Assembly (NCBI GenBank): GCA_039638295.1
Contig: JBDIWJ010000032.1
Span: 1 to 21,831, forward strand
Length of the DNA: 21,831 nucleotides
Reading direction: 5' to 3'
DNA from: Candidatus Phoenicimicrobium oleiphilum
GTDB taxonomy: Bacteria > Atribacterota > Phoenicimicrobiia > Phoenicimicrobiales > Phoenicimicrobiaceae
The notes under the pieces are model-generated. The model had not been told where the DNA came from. It saw only the letters and a list, made by a program, of their open reading frames with translations, and did no database searches. This document shows positions 1 through 21,831 of the stretch, one piece after another (position 1 is the first letter of the stretch; every line of letters begins with the position of its first letter). Both the position numbers and the translations under genes were made by a program.

Positions 1-1
1 G

Positions 2-103
2 GAACCTTCTTATTATCTCCAATTGATTAAGAAGATTCCCTTTGAGCTAACCCAAGCAAGTGATAAAAAGGTGGTAGACTTTTATTTGTCATATAACCAG
101 TAA
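2..103 (+). CDS. 3' end of an upstream gene (partial, product unknown)
   Basis: Frame 2 is open from the window edge (EPSYYLQLIKKIPFELTQASDKKVVDFYLSYNQ*) to TAA 101-103, where the heptamer repeat begins. Other genes in the window end the same way. No motif recognised. Confidence 0.45.
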   Translation, partial: EPSYYLQLIKKIPFELTQASDKKVVDFYLSYNQ

Positions 104-280: not shown

Positions 281-955
281 ATGTTAGAGGTTTTTCAAAA
301 AGGTGGATTCTTAATGTATCCTATTTTTATATGCTCATTGATAGCGCTTACTATTTTTTTTGAAAGGATGTTCTATTTAAAAAGTATTAAAACCAAGAGT
401 AAAAGATTTGTTGTTCGAATTAAGGATTTAATAAGAAAGGGGAACATTGAATTGGCTATCTCTGCATGTCGGAAAAATCCAACTCCAGTATCTATGATTA
501 TGTTAGCTGGTTTAATGAAATATGGTAAAAGTAGAAAGGAGATAAAAGAGGCGATTGAAGATAGTGCAAGCCAAGAAATTCCTCTATTGGAAAAACACCT
601 TTCTACTCTTTCTACTATTGGAAATATTACCCCTTTATTAGGGCTTTTAGGAACAGTATTCGGTATGATCAAGGCATTTAATGTAATTGCGATTATGGGA
701 GTAGGAAAACCTGAGGTTCTTGCTGGGGGGATTTCAGAGGCATTATTAACCACTGCCTTTGGATTATCAGTAGCTATACCCACAATCGTAATTTATAATT
801 ATTTATCTAACCGAGTAGATAAATTGATAAGAGAAATGGAAATAAGTTGTGTAGATCTACTCGATCTTTTAACTAGCCATGATATGAAGGAGTCCACTAG
901 TAAAGATTTTAATCGGGAAGGTGATATAGCCTATGAAGTTTCCTCATCCCAATAA
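281..955 (+). CDS. exbB: MotA/TolQ/ExbB proton channel family protein
   Basis: TM1 MYPIFICSLIALTIFFERM; motifs PLLGLLGTVFGMIKAF and GISEALLTTAFGL. SD-like AGAGGGGG at 263-270. ATG 281 preferred over TTG 278. ExbB versus TolQ not strictly resolvable. Confidence 0.92.
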   Translation: MLEVFQKGGFLMYPIFICSLIALTIFFERMFYLKSIKTKSKRFVVRIKDLIRKGNIELAISACRKNPTPVSMIMLAGLMKYGKSRKEIKEAIEDSASQEIPLLEKHLSTLSTIGNITPLLGLLGTVFGMIKAFNVIAIMGVGKPEVLAGGISEALLTTAFGLSVAIPTIVIYNYLSNRVDKLIREMEISCVDLLDLLTSHDMKESTSKDFNREGDIAYEVSSSQ

Positions 956-1349
956 AAAAAGTGCTAGTTTTGATCTAACTCCATTAATAGATGTAGTTTT
1001 TCTATTATTGATATTTTTTATGTTGACTACTACATTTTTAAATCTGGAAAGTAGGATAAAGGTTAATTTACCCACTGGTGATTTTGCGGCTGCTGAACCA
1101 TCAAAAAATATTACTGTAACTATTGCCGAGAATAATACGATTTATTTTAACGGAAGATTGATAGATCCTTTAAAGATTACTGAAAATGTAGCCACAGAGT
1201 TGAAAAAAGATCCAGAGGGACTAGTGGTATTAGAAGCTGATCAAAATGTGCTTCACGGTAAGGTGGTTAGAGTGATGGATTTGATTAAAAAGGGAGGGGC
1301 AGACAAGATTGCCATTGCCACCAAACCGAGCACGGAAAGTAGTAAATAA
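933..1349 (+). CDS. exbD: ExbD/TolR biopolymer transport protein
   Basis: DLTPLIDVVFLLLIFFM with the conserved TM Asp; C-terminal ADQNVLHGKVVRVMDLIKKGG. Overlaps exbB by 23 nt. Confidence 0.93.
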   Translation: MKFPHPNKKSASFDLTPLIDVVFLLLIFFMLTTTFLNLESRIKVNLPTGDFAAAEPSKNITVTIAENNTIYFNGRLIDPLKITENVATELKKDPEGLVVLEADQNVLHGKVVRVMDLIKKGGADKIAIATKPSTESSK

Positions 1350-1352
1350 GTC

Positions 1353-1688
1353 CGTATCTTGTATTTCGTAAATTGTATCTTGTAAACAAGATAGGAGTCA
1401 GAAGTCAGAATTCAGTATTCAGAATAATCTTAAATATGTATAATACTATATTATTCTGACTCCTTGCTCCTGAATTCTGGATTCTTAATTAGTTTTAAGA
1501 AAAGTTTTGAGTTTTGAATTATGGTTTTTCGTTTTTCGCTTAAATCTTTTAGTTAGTTGGTAATTTAGTTTTTAAAACTAACTAAACAATTAACCAAGTA
1601 ACCCAACTAACTAATGCTAACAACTATTCACTATTCACTAGCGACTAATTTAATTGGAGAATTGGAGAATTGGTAAATAGGTAAATTT
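1353..1688. repeat. Modular intergenic repeat region (heptamer/octamer blocks with nested inverted repeats)
   Basis: YGTAWYT block 1353-1387; AGAAKTC block 1393-1427 and its inverse 1451-1485; perfect 12-bp IR TTAGTTAGTTGG 1549-1560 / CCAACTAACTAA 1603-1614; CTATTCA/CTAGCGA block 1617-1651; AATTGGAG octamers 1652-1683. Confidence 0.88.
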
Positions 1689-1720
1689 ATATATATTATT
1701 ATTAGCTGAGGTGCGAATAA

Positions 1721-3214
1721 TTGATACCCAAATATAGTTATCGAGCAAAACGTCTAAAGCAGACCAAAAAAAGTTTTTTAGGAAGGTCGTTCATAATTTC
1801 AATTGTACTTAATATCATATTATTGTATGCTTTTGGGAGTATGATTGCCTTTGATTTTAAAAAACCTTTACCTGAAGAAGAACTGACCCTGGTTAGTCTG
1901 ATAGAACTCCCTGCCCCCAAACAACCAGAAACTAAGAAACCAGAAATTGTTGAAAAAAGACCTGTTGCTCAATTAGAAGTTCAACCAAAGGTCAAACCAG
2001 TTTTACCTGAACCACCTAAATTAAAGGAAGAAATAACTGAGACTAAAGTAGTAAAGAAAGAAGAATTGACTGAAGGTATACCTAAGGTAGAAGTTAAAAC
2101 TCCTCAAATTGAATCTAAACCTCAATTAGTGGCGCCTCCTCCGCAAACTAGTGAATCTTTAGGTGAGGATATACGTATTTCTACTGAATATTTCAGGCAG
2201 GCTATAGCCAGCAGAAAAGAGGTAAAAGGGGAGATCTTAGAACCGGGAGAATCACAGATTAAGGTTGATTTAGGAGAAAAAGGAAAAGAAAATATTGAAG
2301 CTACCTATGGCACAGTGATTAATCCTGGAGAAATTACTACCCTACCTGAGACCAAGGAGAAAGAATCACCATTTGGGAGTAGACCACTTTCTATTATGGT
2401 GGAAAATTCAGAAGGAGCTCGACCTCAAACAGGTTTAGATAAAGCTAATATTGTTTATGAAATTTTAGCTGAAGGTGGAATAACTAGGTTTTTAGCTGTT
2501 TATTATGATAAGGATGCAGAAGTAGTTGGACCAGTAAGGAGTGCCCGACCTTATTTTATTAGTAAGTCTATGGAGCACCAGTCTATTTATGTCCATGCGG
2601 GAGGGAGTGAGGAGGCTTATAATTTTATAAAAGCAGAAAAAATTGATGATATAAATGAATTTGTAGATTTTCAACCTTTTTGGCGGTCTAAAGACCGAAA
2701 GCCACCCCATAATTTATATACCTCAACTATTGAATTACGCAAAGAAGCCAATAAATTAGGTTATATCGAAATGATAAAGAAAGAGGATTACCAATTTGAA
2801 ACTGATAATAATGAGAAGTTAACTGGTAAACCTACTGATTCTATAGTGATTCCTTATAATCAACATTATATAATTAGTTATAATTATCAACCAGAATCAA
2901 TGAAATATCTAAGATTTTTAAATAATGAGCCTCATATAGATGCTAAGACTAAAGAACAATTATTGGTTGATAATATTGTTATTCAATTTGTGAATACTAA
3001 AGTTATTGACGAAGAAGGACGATTGGCAATGGATTTTGTAGGTGAAGGAAGAGGTTTAATATTTTTTAAAGGTGGCTCTCAAGAGATTATATGGAAGAAA
3101 CAAGATTTAAAGACAAGAACAGTATTTTTAGATAAAGAAGGAAATAGGATAGCTTGTGCTCCAGGGAATATCTGGATCCAAATTGTCCCTTCAAATTTAG
3201 TTATAGAGTATTAA
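1721..3214 (+). CDS. Membrane-anchored DUF3048 (YerB-like) protein with TonB-like N-terminal TM and Pro/Lys/Glu-rich linker
   Basis: TTG start with GAGGTG SD. TM SFIISIVLNIILLYAF, then low-complexity P/K/E linker. From about aa 221: RPLSIMVENSEGARPQTGL..ANIVYEILAEGGITRFLAVY, GPVRSARPYF, YVHAGGS, PHNLY, PGNIWIQIVP, recognised as DUF3048 N and C domains. Confidence 0.85.
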   Translation: MIPKYSYRAKRLKQTKKSFLGRSFIISIVLNIILLYAFGSMIAFDFKKPLPEEELTLVSLIELPAPKQPETKKPEIVEKRPVAQLEVQPKVKPVLPEPPKLKEEITETKVVKKEELTEGIPKVEVKTPQIESKPQLVAPPPQTSESLGEDIRISTEYFRQAIASRKEVKGEILEPGESQIKVDLGEKGKENIEATYGTVINPGEITTLPETKEKESPFGSRPLSIMVENSEGARPQTGLDKANIVYEILAEGGITRFLAVYYDKDAEVVGPVRSARPYFISKSMEHQSIYVHAGGSEEAYNFIKAEKIDDINEFVDFQPFWRSKDRKPPHNLYTSTIELRKEANKLGYIEMIKKEDYQFETDNNEKLTGKPTDSIVIPYNQHYIISYNYQPESMKYLRFLNNEPHIDAKTKEQLLVDNIVIQFVNTKVIDEEGRLAMDFVGEGRGLIFFKGGSQEIIWKKQDLKTRTVFLDKEGNRIACAPGNIWIQIVPSNLVIEY

Positions 3215-3249
3215 ATGTAAACAAAGGTGCCTGGCACCTTTGTTTACAT
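3215..3249. repeat. Perfect 35-bp palindrome (17-bp arms, 1-nt centre); possible bidirectional terminator or REP-like element
   Basis: ATGTAAACAAAGGTGCC-T-GGCACCTTTGTTTACAT, directly after the DUF3048 gene stop. Confidence 0.85.
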
Positions 3250-3264
3250 AAATTTGTTGATAAA

Positions 3265-14283: not shown

Positions 14284-14679
14284 GTGGAAAAGAAAAAAGA
14301 CGAAATGAAAAACAATAAAACAATAAAAGATGAAAGAATAAGAAAAGATATTAAGGAAGAGGAAAAAGAAGAGGCAAAAGAAAAAGCTACAGAGGAAGAA
14401 AAACAAGAAGAACCTCCTAAAGAGCTTGATTTAACTACTCTTTTTGTATGGTTTATAAGTATGTTAAGTGGAAAGGCCTGGGAATATCTGGGTCTTATAA
14501 TGAATCCAGAGACAAAAAAGCTGAATAAGGATTTGAAGAAAGCCAAAATTGCCATCGATACTATCGCCTTTTTATTTGATCAAATAAAAGATGCTCTAAA
14601 CAAAGAAGATTTTAATAGAATAGAAAGTTTATTGGCAAATTTGAGAATGAATTATGTGGAGAAATTGAAAGAATCATAA
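14284..14679 (+). CDS. DUF1844 domain protein with charged N-terminal extension
   Basis: GTG start, AAGGAGG SD; AWEYLGLIMNPET...DLKKAKIAIDTI...LLANLRMNYVE pattern recognised as DUF1844. Confidence 0.75.
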   Translation: MEKKKDEMKNNKTIKDERIRKDIKEEEKEEAKEKATEEEKQEEPPKELDLTTLFVWFISMLSGKAWEYLGLIMNPETKKLNKDLKKAKIAIDTIAFLFDQIKDALNKEDFNRIESLLANLRMNYVEKLKES

Positions 14680-14713
14680 TATAAAAGAAAGTAGGGAAGA
14701 AGGTGTAAGTATA

Positions 14714-15649
14714 ATGGAAAAATTTTATCGCAAAACTGTTCTAAATCTGTTAATTTTTTTGATAATGTTAATTTTGGGTTGTGAAATAATCTATGCTCAG
14801 GACGCCCAAACTTATTATAAGAATGGATATATATATTTTACTCAGGGAAACTACGAGAAGGCAGAACAGAACTATAAAAATGCTGTTGAATTAGATCCTA
14901 ATTTTGAAGATGCTCATTACTGGTTAGGGAAAGTATATAAACAAACCGGAGATTATAGTCGCGCAGTAGAACAATGGAAAAAGGTTTTAAAAATTAATCC
15001 CAAAAATCCTTATGCTTTTAGCTACTTAATAGGCAGTTTTCAAAGCACTTCTCGAGTTAAATCAGATAAAGCAAGTGATTACTTAAACGAAGGAATTAAA
15101 ATAATTGGAAATCCAGAGGAATATCTTATAAAGCAAGATGCGCCATCTGTAGATCTTTTGCTTAGTGCTACTCCTTATTTTAAGAAAGCAATAAGTTTAG
15201 AGCCAAATTTATTAGAAGCTTATTTTTGGCTGGGAGAAATTTATTGGGTTTTAGGAGATAAGAGTACCTCTCAGTTTCGTTCATTAGCTATAGAAAATTA
15301 TGAAAAAGCTATTGACATAGAAGAAGCTACCAATTCCGTGTCTTTCAACCATCCCTCAGCATACTGGCGTTCCTATATACAATTAAGTAAAATATATAAT
15401 TCTTTAAAATGGGTGGACAAAGAAGAACAATTATGGCTAAGATTAGAAAAGGCAAGAGCACTCCCTTATCAACAAGCTTTGGATAGAAAAGGATATTTTG
15501 GTTTTGGATATCCTTCTCGAATAGATGTTAGGTTTACAGAAGGGGATAAGATAGAGAATTGGATTTATACAGAAAAAAATATTACTTTTGTGGTAATTAA
15601 TGGAGAAGTACAGGGTGAGAAAGAGAAAGAGGAGGAACAGCAATTTTAA
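14714..15649 (+). CDS. Exported tetratricopeptide repeat protein
   Basis: Signal-like N-terminus ending IYA-Q; TPR units such as [49 protein letters not shown]. Confidence 0.85.
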
Positions 15650-19152: not shown

Positions 19153-20220
19153 TTATTTTTTATTTCTTTTATTTTTAAACTTTTTAATTTCCAATAAAAG
19201 GACGATTGCTCCGATGAACAAATTAAAATAAAAGACTATAAATCTCCAAGCCCCAACAAAAAGTCCCAAAAGATGATAAGGGACAAAGAGCGAAAATAAA
19301 GTTGCAAAGCCTAATTCTGCTGTACCACTTCCACCCGGGGTAGGCATAAAAGGTAAAATAAAATAAAATATAATTTGTGTTATTAACACTTGGGAGAAAT
19401 TAAATTTTAAGTTAAATCCCCAGAGAAGTAAGGGGGCTATTAAGAAAAAGGTGCCCCAGAAGATAATGGTATATAGGGTAGCTAATAATAATTTAACCCA
19501 ATTTTCTTTTATTAGATAAAAACTTTTATGAAATTTTCTAATTTCGAAAATTATTTTCTCAGTTAAACTCGATACTTTTTCTTTTTTGAAAAAGTTAGAA
19601 AGACAGGGAAATTGTTTAATTCTAAAGATTATTTTTATCATCCTTTCTGGGTGTCTTACCACTAAAATGAATAGGTAAATAAGTAAAAGAGAGAATAAGG
19701 TAACCAGGATAACAAGAATTGCAGAAAAAGTAACATAACTGGTAATTGTTTTGCTAAAGAAGAAGAAAACGATAGGAGTAGTGATTGAAAAGACCAGTGT
19801 TTTAAGTAAAGGAATAACAGTGGCTATCATTGTCGCCTTGCCCAGGGGTATTTTATATTTAAGATTTTTATTAAATAAATACATTTGAGCGGGCAAAGTC
19901 CCGGAGAAAAAAGGAGTTATGCTACCGGCAAAGTTACTGATATAGTGTACTTTTAAAGCTTCTACAAAGGTAATTTTTTCATTAACTGCCTCTACGATCG
20001 TTTTTATTCTGAGGGCGGCTATTATAGCAGAAAATACTATTAAAGTAAAAGATAAAAAAAGGTATTTTTTATTAACATAAGATAAACTTGTCAAGACATT
20101 CTGGTTATTAGTAACAAAAGTAATAACCAAAAAGGCAATTACTCCAATAACTAAGGAAATTATTAATCCTTTGAAAATTCTTTTTTTATCTAAAATTAAT
20201 TCGTTCAAACAATCGTTCAC
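19153..20220 (-). CDS. Lysylphosphatidylglycerol synthase TM / flippase-like membrane protein (UPF0104)
   Basis: Multi-TM; SITPFFSGTLPAQ, MPTPGGSGTAELGF, WRFIVFY. Start is GTG 20220 or, with better SD spacing, TTG 20208. Confidence 0.85.
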   Translation of the reverse strand: MNDCLNELILDKKRIFKGLIISLVIGVIAFLVITFVTNNQNVLTSLSYVNKKYLFLSFTLIVFSAIIAALRIKTIVEAVNEKITFVEALKVHYISNFAGSITPFFSGTLPAQMYLFNKNLKYKIPLGKATMIATVIPLLKTLVFSITTPIVFFFFSKTITSYVTFSAILVILVTLFSLLLIYLFILVVRHPERMIKIIFRIKQFPCLSNFFKKEKVSSLTEKIIFEIRKFHKSFYLIKENWVKLLLATLYTIIFWGTFFLIAPLLLWGFNLKFNFSQVLITQIIFYFILPFMPTPGGSGTAELGFATLFSLFVPYHLLGLFVGAWRFIVFYFNLFIGAIVLLLEIKKFKNKRNKK

Positions 20221-20230
20221 CCCTTCAAAC

Positions 20231-20297
20231 TAGTCGTTAGTGAATAGTCGTTAGTATTTAGTATATAATATATAGTAAAGAAAAGGAAGATAGAATA
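20231..20297. repeat. Heptamer arm directly upstream of the minus-strand gene
   Basis: TAGTCGTTAGTGAATAGTCGTTAGTATTTAGTATA; on the minus strand this reads as the ACTAACG/CTATTCA right arm preceding the SD GAAGGGG. Continuation TAGTAAAGAAAA..GAAG.TAGAATA resembles 6867-6897. Confidence 0.85.
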
Positions 20298-20337
20298 GGA
20301 ATTAAAATTATAGAAGTATAGGTGTATTGCTATATGC

Positions 20338-20453
20338 CCTCAATAAGCTATATTAGACTGAAGGACAGGCGTTCCCCTTTACTCGTTTTCACGAGCACAT
20401 GTTTCACAGGGACAAGTCCGTCTGTTGAGGTAGTTGCTCGATTCACCGAGTGC
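20338..20453. repeat. GC-richer nested hairpin plus degenerate GTAG REP in the divergent spacer
   Basis: CCTCAA/TTGAGG outer pair, GGAC/GTCC, TCCC/GGGA, CTCGT-TTTC-ACGAG inner hairpin; GTAGTT-GCTCG-ATTCAC-CGAGT at 20430-20451. Confidence 0.55.
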
Positions 20454-20542
20454 GTTAAAAGATACTATTGATTATTGAATTTTAGAGTATAATAATAAAA
20501 AAATGATTAGAATATTAAATTATTTAAAAGGATGATTCATTA

Positions 20543-21226
20543 ATGAAAGGGACCATTGTAAATGTAATAGCTATTTTTTTGGGATGTTCAGTAGGATTTA
20601 TTTTGAAGAGTAAATTCCCTGAAAAAATCGGAAAGATTATTATGCAAGCTTTAGGGTTGGTTTCTTTATTAATTGGTATGCAGATGGCTCTTAAAACAAA
20701 CAATATCTTATTAATAATCTTTTCTTTGGTGATTGGTGGGATAATAGGAGAATTAATGGGGATTGAAGAAGGATTAGAAAGATTTGGAGAGAAGATAAGG
20801 TCAAAATTTAAAGGTAACACTGCTTCTGAAAGATTTGTTGAGGGATTTATTACTGCCAGCTTGTTATATTGTGTTGGCTCTATGGCTATAATGGGTGCAC
20901 TCAAAGAGGGGTTAAGTGGTAATCCAGATATACTCTATACTAAATCATTGTTGGATGGAGTTACTTCTATTGCCTTTACTGCCGCCATGGGGATAGGGGT
21001 GTTGTTTTCTACAATTCCGGTATTTTTGTATCAAGGAGGAATTACTTTACTGGCTCAATTGATTAAAGATTTTCTCTCTCCAGAGGTAATAAATGAAATG
21101 ACTGCTGTGGGAGGAATTTTAATATTGGGCCTAGGCTTTGGATTATTGGAGGTCAAAAAGATTAAAGTAGGAAATTTACTACCAGCTATCGTGGTTGCCG
21201 CTATTTTAGCAACAATTTTTAGTTGA
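20543..21226 (+). CDS. DUF554 family membrane protein
   Basis: MKGTIVNVIAI, GFITASLLYCVGSMAIMG, LYTKSLLDG, VFLYQG, EMTAVGG, IKVGNLLPA. Confidence 0.9.
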   Translation: MKGTIVNVIAIFLGCSVGFILKSKFPEKIGKIIMQALGLVSLLIGMQMALKTNNILLIIFSLVIGGIIGELMGIEEGLERFGEKIRSKFKGNTASERFVEGFITASLLYCVGSMAIMGALKEGLSGNPDILYTKSLLDGVTSIAFTAAMGIGVLFSTIPVFLYQGGITLLAQLIKDFLSPEVINEMTAVGGILILGLGFGLLEVKKIKVGNLLPAIVVAAILATIFS

Positions 21227-21273
21227 AATAGTAAAAGAGCCAAGATTAAAAGGATACAAAAGGGTATATACAA

Positions 21274-21831
21274 ATGAAGTCAGAATTTAAACAGAGAAAT
21301 AAAAATGATAAAAATTTAAAACAAAAAATATGGATAGAAAGAATCAAAGAGAATAAAGAAGTATTTGTAGTAGCTGGTATGGTTATATTTTTAAGTATTA
21401 TAGTCTACTTGAGTGAGGTCTTAGATATTCCCCATTACTTTTTTGGTTTTCCAAGAACTACAGTAAACAGGGGAGAAGCCCTTTTTCTAATTATTCTAAT
21501 AATTTTAATCGGTAGTACAGCAATTATTATAATTAAGCGTATTATTGGTGAACGCAGAAAATATTTAGATATCTTGAGGGAGTCAGAAGAAAAATACCAT
21601 ACCCTCTTTGATAATATGCCGGGGGCTTATTATCGTGCAGATATAGAAGGGAATATTCTGCTGATAAATCCTCACGGAGCCAAATTGCTGGGCTATAACT
21701 CTCCCCAAGAGATTATAGGGAAAAATCTGGCGAAGGATTTATATTATATCCCTGAAGATAGAAAGGTATTTTTAGAAGAACTGAAAAAAAGAAAAGGAAA
21801 TATTAAGGATTATGAAGTAACCTTGAAAAGA
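21274..21831 (+). CDS. Membrane-anchored PAS-domain sensor protein (partial, runs off the window)
   Basis: Hand translation from ATG 21274 is open to the edge: two TM segments, then LRESEEKYHTLFDNMPGAYYRADIEGNILLINPHGAKLLGYNSPQEIIGKN (PAS S-box). Output domain not visible. Confidence 0.85.
   Translation, partial: MKSEFKQRNKNDKNLKQKIWIERIKENKEVFVVAGMVIFLSIIVYLSEVLDIPHYFFGFPRTTVNRGEALFLIILIILIGSTAIIIIKRIIGERRKYLDILRESEEKYHTLFDNMPGAYYRADIEGNILLINPHGAKLLGYNSPQEIIGKNLAKDLYYIPEDRKVFLEELKKRKGNIKDYEVTLKR

Follow-up and report, generated by a model that had tools for sequence, protein, structure and literature searches.

What does an ExbB-ExbD motor drive when the gene behind it encodes a TonB-like stalk that ends in DUF3048? 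The question is raised by a contig of 21,831 nucleotides (nt) from Candidatus Phoenicimicrobium oleiphilum (Atribacterota; GenBank assembly GCA_039638295.1, contig JBDIWJ010000032.1), analyzed here as a whole and called the window. It is the entire contig C32 of its genome, G000 (1.65 Mb, 91% complete). An earlier note had read positions 281 to 3,214 as exbB, exbD, and a transducer gene, and had proposed an ion-driven Ton/Tol-like motor acting on DUF3048. Here, the three genes were found where that note placed them. Together with a fourth gene for a tetratricopeptide repeat (TPR) protein, they form a block that is real, conserved, and apparently undescribed, and its stalk very probably works like a Ton/Tol force transducer, as judged from sequence. 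The proposal is thus supported by motif and synteny, while the coupling and the action of the tip are argued for below in graded terms.

The motor, its stalk, and their conserved block

The features that carry this reading are listed by position in the window (aa, amino acids; pLDDT, predicted local distance difference test).

281..955, forward strand: exbB/tolQ-family motor subunit, 224 aa (PF01618, E = 1.5e-35)
933..1349, forward strand: exbD/tolR-family motor subunit, 138 aa, overlapping exbB (PF02472, E = 3.2e-30)
1721..3214, forward strand: stalk protein of 497 aa, TonB/TolA-like and with a DUF3048 tip, TTG start
1784..1855, forward strand: transmembrane helix, aa 22-45, with S27-x3-N31 (nt 1799-1813), from a single hydrophobic segment and the structural model
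1886..1912, forward strand: D-box-like strand, aa 56-64, with the core V58-S-L-I-E62 and P64, a predicted ExbD docking site
1907..2359, forward strand: linker, aa 63-213, a Pro/Lys/Glu-rich half (63-145) followed by an acidic half, pLDDT mostly below 50
2360..3211, forward strand: YerB/DUF3048 and DUF3048_C tip, aa 214-497, from sequence and fold

Motifs were counted in an alignment of the window protein with 40 orthologues (n = 41), which share about 35% overall identity; the orthologues are kin, so counts of 41/41 are not independent events. The conserved residues of ExbB are S19 in the first transmembrane helix, T125, T157, T158, and P167, of which S19, T125, T157, and T158 are kept in 39/39 ExbB sequences. 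The transmembrane Asp20 of ExbD (nt 990-992) is kept in 41/41. By position, these would be the equivalents of the E. coli motor residues. As in Tol-Pal, the motor is of the TolQ/TolR type, with a pore ring of Thr and a transmembrane Asp; the window ExbB scores under both the tolQ and the exbB equivalog cut-offs of NCBIfam. The block's exbB is the sole MotA/ExbB-family gene both in G000, where it is the sole PF01618 gene, and in the single-contig genome G005.

The stalk protein begins with a basic segment (aa 1-22, 23% Lys), followed by the single transmembrane helix. Ser27 is kept in 41/41 sequences; at position 31, 39 have Asn and 2, both of family f7, have His. The TonB feature is thus present as S-x3-N/H rather than as strict S-x3-H, which all eight canonical Atribacterota TonBs examined carry. 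Asn is said to be able to replace His20 of E. coli TonB (we know this work, by Swayne and Postle in 2011, by its title only). Among 146 other DUF3048 representatives, one has S-x3-H/N inside its hydrophobic segment. Behind the helix lies the hydrophobic strand LTLVSLI (aa 55-61), within which the five-residue D-box core pattern is found in 41/41 sequences, as are E62 and P64. The window protein fails part of the seven-residue D-box pattern, at its first two positions, in the form given in the accessible text of PMC10907165. The first half of the linker, aa 63-145, is 19% Pro, 17% Lys, and 17% Glu, and the acidic half after it is better conserved. In an AlphaFold2 model made with 24 orthologues, helix 22-45 and the tip are confident, and the linker is mostly of low confidence. 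Pfam, searched to E = 0.1, and NCBIfam, searched to E = 1, gave no TonB_C, as the earlier note had it, and no TolA. When a profile of aa 20-66 was run against 2,067 sequences, three stalk proteins were followed by P0129, a stalk protein from outside the genome set, and by two canonical Atribacterota TonBs; the latter matches are weak (E = 0.032 and 0.041) and rank above the other 1,909 frames of G000. In the ESM Atlas, the named families nearest to aa 1-150 were three TonB N-terminal families (0.84-0.87), which serve as leads only.

The distribution of the block was determined in 86 Atribacterota genomes, and synteny was read at 40 loci picked to span all seven families, f1 to f7. The stalk gene has matches in 82/86 genomes: 74 near full length (read off the match table as a single frame), 6 partial or fragmented, and 2 to a stand-alone paralogue only; the 4 genomes with no match are 60-90% complete. 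The block runs from a TPR gene of about 1,130-1,240 aa through exbB, exbD, and the stalk gene, often to lgt, and then to xerD. Upstream of the stalk gene, exbD was found at 36/40 loci, exbB at 34/40, and the TPR gene at 33/40, and every miss lies at a contig end with at most 1,112 nt of upstream DNA available. As a control, 71 other DUF3048 loci (70 labeled mostly Firmicutes, 48 of those at least 10 kb long) carried exbB or exbD in no case. At 19/19 loci of f3 to f7, exbD and the stalk gene either overlap or are at most 10 nt apart, measured to the first possible start; the gap is 39-65 nt at nine f2 loci and 80-427 nt at eight f1 loci. The long spacer in the window, 371 bp (1350-1720) rather than the 370 of the earlier note, is a lineage-specific expansion. 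Both the S-x3-H/N motif and the synteny with exbBD therefore hold phylum-wide. A canonical tonB or tolA just upstream of the window had been raised as a refutation; the gene upstream of exbB is the giant TPR gene instead, and a canonical tonB in that place was rejected.

In four f4 genomes, exbB-exbD is doubled, as a 1.07-1.15-kb direct repeat that flanks the TPR gene on both sides (L035:9814-10887 and 14506-15579 in G019; also L040, L044, and L055). The duplicates are 99.9-100% identical within a genome and differ between genomes, which suggests ongoing gene conversion, or recombination able to excise or amplify the TPR gene. The stalk gene of G016 (C40, 14467-15908) is split in three, by frameshift or assembly error (the assembly has 8% contamination).

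Two features of the helix and its partner weigh against energized coupling. Position 23 of ExbB, the equivalent of E. coli Trp38, is L, I, V, or M, and the last two SHLS positions of the helix motif are not conserved in the stalk. According to the accessible part of bioRxiv 10.1101/2024.10.08.617233, Ser16 and His20 of TonB work against Ser34, Trp38, and Pro190 of ExbB, the Trp contacts TonB His20, and conservation of SHLS is lower at its last two positions. One canonical Atribacterota ExbB likewise has Leu at the Trp38 position. The stalk might then be a relic, a TonB N terminus reused as a passive, de-energized anchor or spacer for a YerB-like protein. The change from His to Asn in 39/41 sequences and the absent Trp would fit this, as would the plain anchors of most DUF3048 proteins (140 of 150 with a hydrophobic N terminus) and of P0125, whose tip is closely related. 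However, Ser, Asn/His, and the D-box are invariant despite the low overall identity, the stalk gene overlaps or abuts exbD in five families, and no other motor client was detectable in G000 or G005. A relic is accordingly improbable.

The mechanism that we propose starts from an intact set of motor residues, from a protein that joins an S-x3-N/H helix, a D-box-like strand, and a long linker to DUF3048, and from four genes that stay together. The helix would dock on the first transmembrane helix of ExbB and the D-box on the ExbD dimer, and turning of the motor would reel the linker in, as for TonB or TolA; we hold this step to be highly likely. Motor coupling is well supported, although inferred, and the target of the tip is a guess.

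The DUF3048 tip

Both halves of the tip match their families above cut-off, DUF3048 (PF11258) at aa 214-348 (E = 7.9e-49) and DUF3048_C (PF17479) at aa 377-486 (E = 5.2e-27). The domain claimed by the earlier note is therefore present, but it begins at aa 214, about 7 residues before the proposed start at about aa 221. Against Bacillus subtilis YerB (2PSB), the tip gave E = 2.4e-44 by sequence and Z = 35.8 by fold, with a root mean square deviation of 2.2 over 273 aa at 35% identity. It thus shares the two-domain fold and the invariant residues of YerB, whereas a typical YerB/DUF3048 protein is a lipoprotein or carries a plain anchor, with no motor genes nearby. The accessible part of PMC13068155 describes YerB as a lipoprotein of unknown function.

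Thirty-five columns are at least 90% conserved in 146 other DUF3048 proteins; in the fused tips, every one of them is retained at 95-100%. The invariant residues are N229, E247, E251, R256, R273, S274, R276, Y278, H292, R322, N331, and R398. With all 35 columns retained, the tip keeps the binding or catalytic site of the family, which is large (9,896 clusters at E 0.001). Among the best 150 DUF3048 representatives, a hydrophobic N terminus is present in 140 and a lipobox, as defined by a simple pattern, in 53. Many relatives are Gram-positive, and the family is frequent in bacteria that lack an outer membrane. These N termini and relatives point to a ligand outside the cytoplasmic membrane that is common to monoderms and diderms, most simply the cell wall. 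In the proposed mechanism, the invariant Arg/Glu/His/Asn cluster of the tip would bind an anionic wall ligand such as peptidoglycan, a step to which we give somewhat better than even credence because the same residues are kept in anchored Gram-positive DUF3048 proteins, from cells with a wall and without outer membrane or motor.

The same residues can be read as an active site. DUF3048 might be an enzyme, for example a wall-editing one, that the motor positions or switches on, rather than a handle. The Glu, His, Asn, and Arg that are invariant family-wide are kept in the fused tips, and the LpoB-like and CpoB-like folds of the TPR partner recall regulators of wall synthesis. On the other hand, DUF3048 has no link to a known enzyme by sequence or fold, and invariant polar residues suit a binding site equally well. 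We consider an enzyme unlikely. In fold searches with the tip, 2PSB was the sole match, and the other misses exclude nothing. Among 36 long DUF3048 proteins, the domains fused to DUF3048 (TPR in 6, PEGA in 2, dockerin in 1, beta-lactamase in 1, none detected in the rest) indicated no clear function.

In a FastTree tree of 163 tips, a branch with support 93 sets the 16 Atribacterota fused tips apart, with P0125 included. The tip of P0125, a protein of 373 aa with a plain membrane anchor, is nested among f1 fused tips and has two invariant residues changed; it is possibly a derived or degenerate copy. P0129 is placed near the fused tips without support, so one or two fusion origins both fit. A second, independent link between DUF3048 and TPR is seen in P0150, P0176, P0178, P0194, P0232, and P0241, fusions of 810-917 aa. 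A stand-alone DUF3048 paralogue is common in f1 and f2; the copy in G000 (L002:1390-2337, contig C28) encodes 315 aa with a signal-like N terminus and has lost some conserved residues, and its neighbors are presumably CBS-domain-like and cytidine-deaminase-like genes.

Proposed role in the envelope

The block is a member of neither the Ton, the Tol-Pal, nor the vWA class. TonB_C occurs in 21/86 genomes and transporter barrels in 25/86, but neither TonB_C (PF03544) nor the TonB-dependent transporter (PF00593) was found in G000 or in the four single-contig genomes with the block (G005, G019, G030, and G032); thus, the block does not serve ordinary Ton uptake. With Ton it shares the motor families, the S-x3-H/N helix, the D-box pattern, and the Pro-rich linker. 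It differs in a stalk without TonB_C, in the lack of a transporter in the block or in G000, and in that a separate canonical cassette exists elsewhere in the phylum. Eight of ten canonical TonB loci have their own exbB beside tonB; at the remaining two, the contig runs out or exbB is missing. The cassette, ordered transporter-tonB-exbB-exbD, is patchy, being found in about a quarter of Atribacterota genomes and mostly in f2 (L086-L095).

Tol-Pal resembles the block in being a conserved, housekeeping-like operon and in having a partner with a TolB-N-like fold and CpoB/BamD-like TPRs. The block, however, lacks the C-terminal domain of TolA, the TolB propeller, and pal, and the folded C terminus of its stalk is fully YerB-like. 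No pal gene or barrel gene was found at any of the 40 loci, and no OmpA/Pal domain (PF00691) in G000 or G005. OmpA-domain genes are patchy (32/50 near-complete genomes), and those of G019 and G032 adjoin a motA-like gene. The TolB-N-like fold sits on the TPR protein; PD40 proteins occur outside the block in 5/5 genomes tested. An Omp85 gene was found in 5/5 genomes tested as well, so an outer membrane is likely. The sole Omp85 match of G000 is a 1,095-aa protein that also has PD40 propeller repeats (C23, about 19700-21800; L102, L122), and the single-contig relatives have an Omp85 frame of 556-576 aa instead.

The nearest published design is that of the vWA-tipped transducers of Williams-Jones et al. 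(2025), which, in the accessible text of PMC12204202, have a Ser/His helix, a motor box, a Pro-rich linker, and a non-TonB globular tip, with adjoining TPR and tolQ/tolR-like genes; these genes lie upstream in the block, too. The block differs in its tip, which is DUF3048 by Pfam and fold and not a vWA C-terminal domain, in having mostly Asn for His, in having one exbD against a heterologous pair, and in its phylum. The sole mention of Atribacteria in the accessible text of that paper is of a canonical TonB, and a search of the available supplement for Atribacter, DUF3048, and YerB gave nothing. The literature searched on YerB, on Ton/Tol in Atribacterota, and on force transducers, which largely excludes subscription papers, gave no description of the block, and the accessible parts of PMC11658791, PMC4433262, PMC10849945, and bioRxiv 10.1101/2024.07.10.602958 held nothing decisive.

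The TPR protein is the fourth component that the present analysis adds; the outer-membrane partner looked for upstream was not found in the block. The protein is about 1,210 aa long, and its G000 copy lies at the end of contig C54 (L074:5289-8933). By eye, its N terminus is hydrophobic and signal-peptide-like, and its repeats include YfiO/BamD-type matches. Its N-terminal alpha/beta head, modeled with a pLDDT of 92.6, matches the folds of TolB-N (1c5k, Z = 13.1, root mean square deviation 2.6, 137 aa), LpoB, and the CadC periplasmic domain. As a secreted protein, it might be the scaffold between the tip and proteins of the outer layer or of wall building, a step for which the chances seem evenly divided. 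Just after the head lies a conserved non-repeat motif, in a region that matches paralogues on C26 and C20 of G000.

A second lineage raises the possibility of Ton-like action on an unrecognized outer-membrane barrel, for import, export, or assembly, in which DUF3048 would replace TonB_C and the TPR protein would be a chaperone or adaptor. In P0129 and its relative L123, from genome G086, an SLIIH helix and a D-box-like strand are followed by a linker of 350 residues and by DUF3048, which shows that the DUF3048 stalk design exists outside the 86 genomes; neither gene has exbBD next to it. In G086, a 784-aa TPR gene, a transporter-like barrel gene of 565 aa without a Pfam match, and exbB (the only one found there) stand in a row (L123:8001-10100 for the stalk and L196:10488-15388 for the row). 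This ExbB is 49% identical to that of the window, against 35% for one Ton-cassette Atribacterota ExbB. The genome's own DUF3048 stalk and the YfiO/BamD matches of the TPR protein would also suit a barrel client. Against it, no barrel gene stands at any of the 40 loci, and the G086 barrel, used as a query, matches nothing beyond the patchy canonical transporters, which it finds in 22/86 genomes and not in G000. The barrel of G086 could be served by the two TonB_C proteins of that genome, and DUF3048 is frequent where an outer membrane is lacking. Action on a barrel is thus rather unlikely. Further members of this lineage were limited to one 3-kb metagenome contig among 57 loci; its group otherwise consists of G086 alone.

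TolQR-type motors with TonB-like and TPR partners power gliding elsewhere, and the gliding machine Agl-Glt of Myxococcus serves as a comparison. A motor for gliding or surface translocation, with the TPR protein as track or adaptor, was therefore considered, and the accessible text of PMC12204202 raises gliding for vWA-tipped transducers. The block holds no adhesin or outer-membrane genes at the 40 loci, its neighborhood is of the housekeeping kind, its presence is near universal, and Caldatribacterium has reported flagella (PMC13408713, accessible part). We regard motility as highly improbable.

We favor a Tol-like, ion-driven machine that would grip and pull on the cell wall and keep the envelope layers ordered without Pal, a reading that may prove right or wrong with equal chance. 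Several findings weigh against it. The stalk of G086 is not beside exbBD, and a related exbB follows the barrel gene there. The neighbors of DUF3048 at 70 Firmicutes loci gave no clear wall-related clue, in a clustering of 71 loci that was swamped by opposite-strand frames. The literature searched on DUF3048/YerB gave no ligand, phenotype, or activity for any member, and there was no second structural relative, so wall binding is an inference only. Among the fold matches to the TPR head, the CadC periplasmic domain ranks first overall, and the pairing of a TolB-N-like head with TPRs is thus not specific to Tol. Finally, the 7-nm gap between the outer and middle layers of Atribacter laminatus (PMC7736352, accessible part) is far shorter than a 150-residue linker needs.

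The accessible parts of PMC7736352 and PMC13408713 describe three membrane-like layers in the Atribacterota envelope and list only counts of exbB and exbD. For this phylum, whose three-layered envelope is unexplained and which has no universal Pal, the block is a candidate machine. A bolder version of the favored reading, held tentatively and with more doubt than belief, makes the block the Tol-Pal replacement of Atribacterota, with a TPR-organized, wall-binding DUF3048 head, pulled by the motor, that tethers and divides the multilayered envelope, and makes DUF3048 a widespread wall-binding or wall-editing module. If this were true, the module would act in Gram-positives and diderms alike. The block itself, whichever version holds, would add DUF3048 to TonB_C, TolA, and vWA on the short list of output domains for ExbBD/TolQR force transducers and would tie a large orphan family to envelope mechanics, its first functional lead. 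The idea is testable because cultured Atribacterota and a YerB crystal structure exist.

Other features of the locus

Three further features lie around the genes.

1..98, no strand assigned: end of a repeated element resembling an insertion sequence (IS), with an imperfect 19-bp inverted end at 80-98
1350..1720, no strand assigned: 371-bp spacer of short repeats, with blastn matches to many other G000 contigs
3215..3249, forward strand: 16-pair hairpin after the stop codon of the third gene and before xerD

Downstream of the third gene, xerD is followed by housekeeping genes in the window; at most f3 to f6 loci, lgt (prolipoprotein diacylglyceryl transferase) lies directly 3' of the stalk gene (L034:11141-11908). 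A promoter scan gave 15 sites against 13.6 expected by chance. The hairpin is a possible terminator, though it looks like a repeated element, and it is the one hairpin found against 1.9 expected in shuffled sequence. Contigs from RNA libraries (three runs, two studies) span all three genes, with the spacer in pieces in X1, and have loose ends at 3212-3252, around the hairpin. Such contigs carry no strand or single-transcript information and may include DNA, and they were not used as evidence.

The first 100 or so nt of the window match the ends of contigs C9, C20, C35, and C37 at 99-100%, and at the end of C54, the matching inverted end directly follows the TPR gene. An IS-like repeat between the TPR gene and exbB thus explains the contig break. 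The element, with its imperfect 19-bp inverted ends, lies at the ends of at least eight G000 contigs (window 1-98; L074:8987-9085), and its insertion sites are short intergenic repeats.

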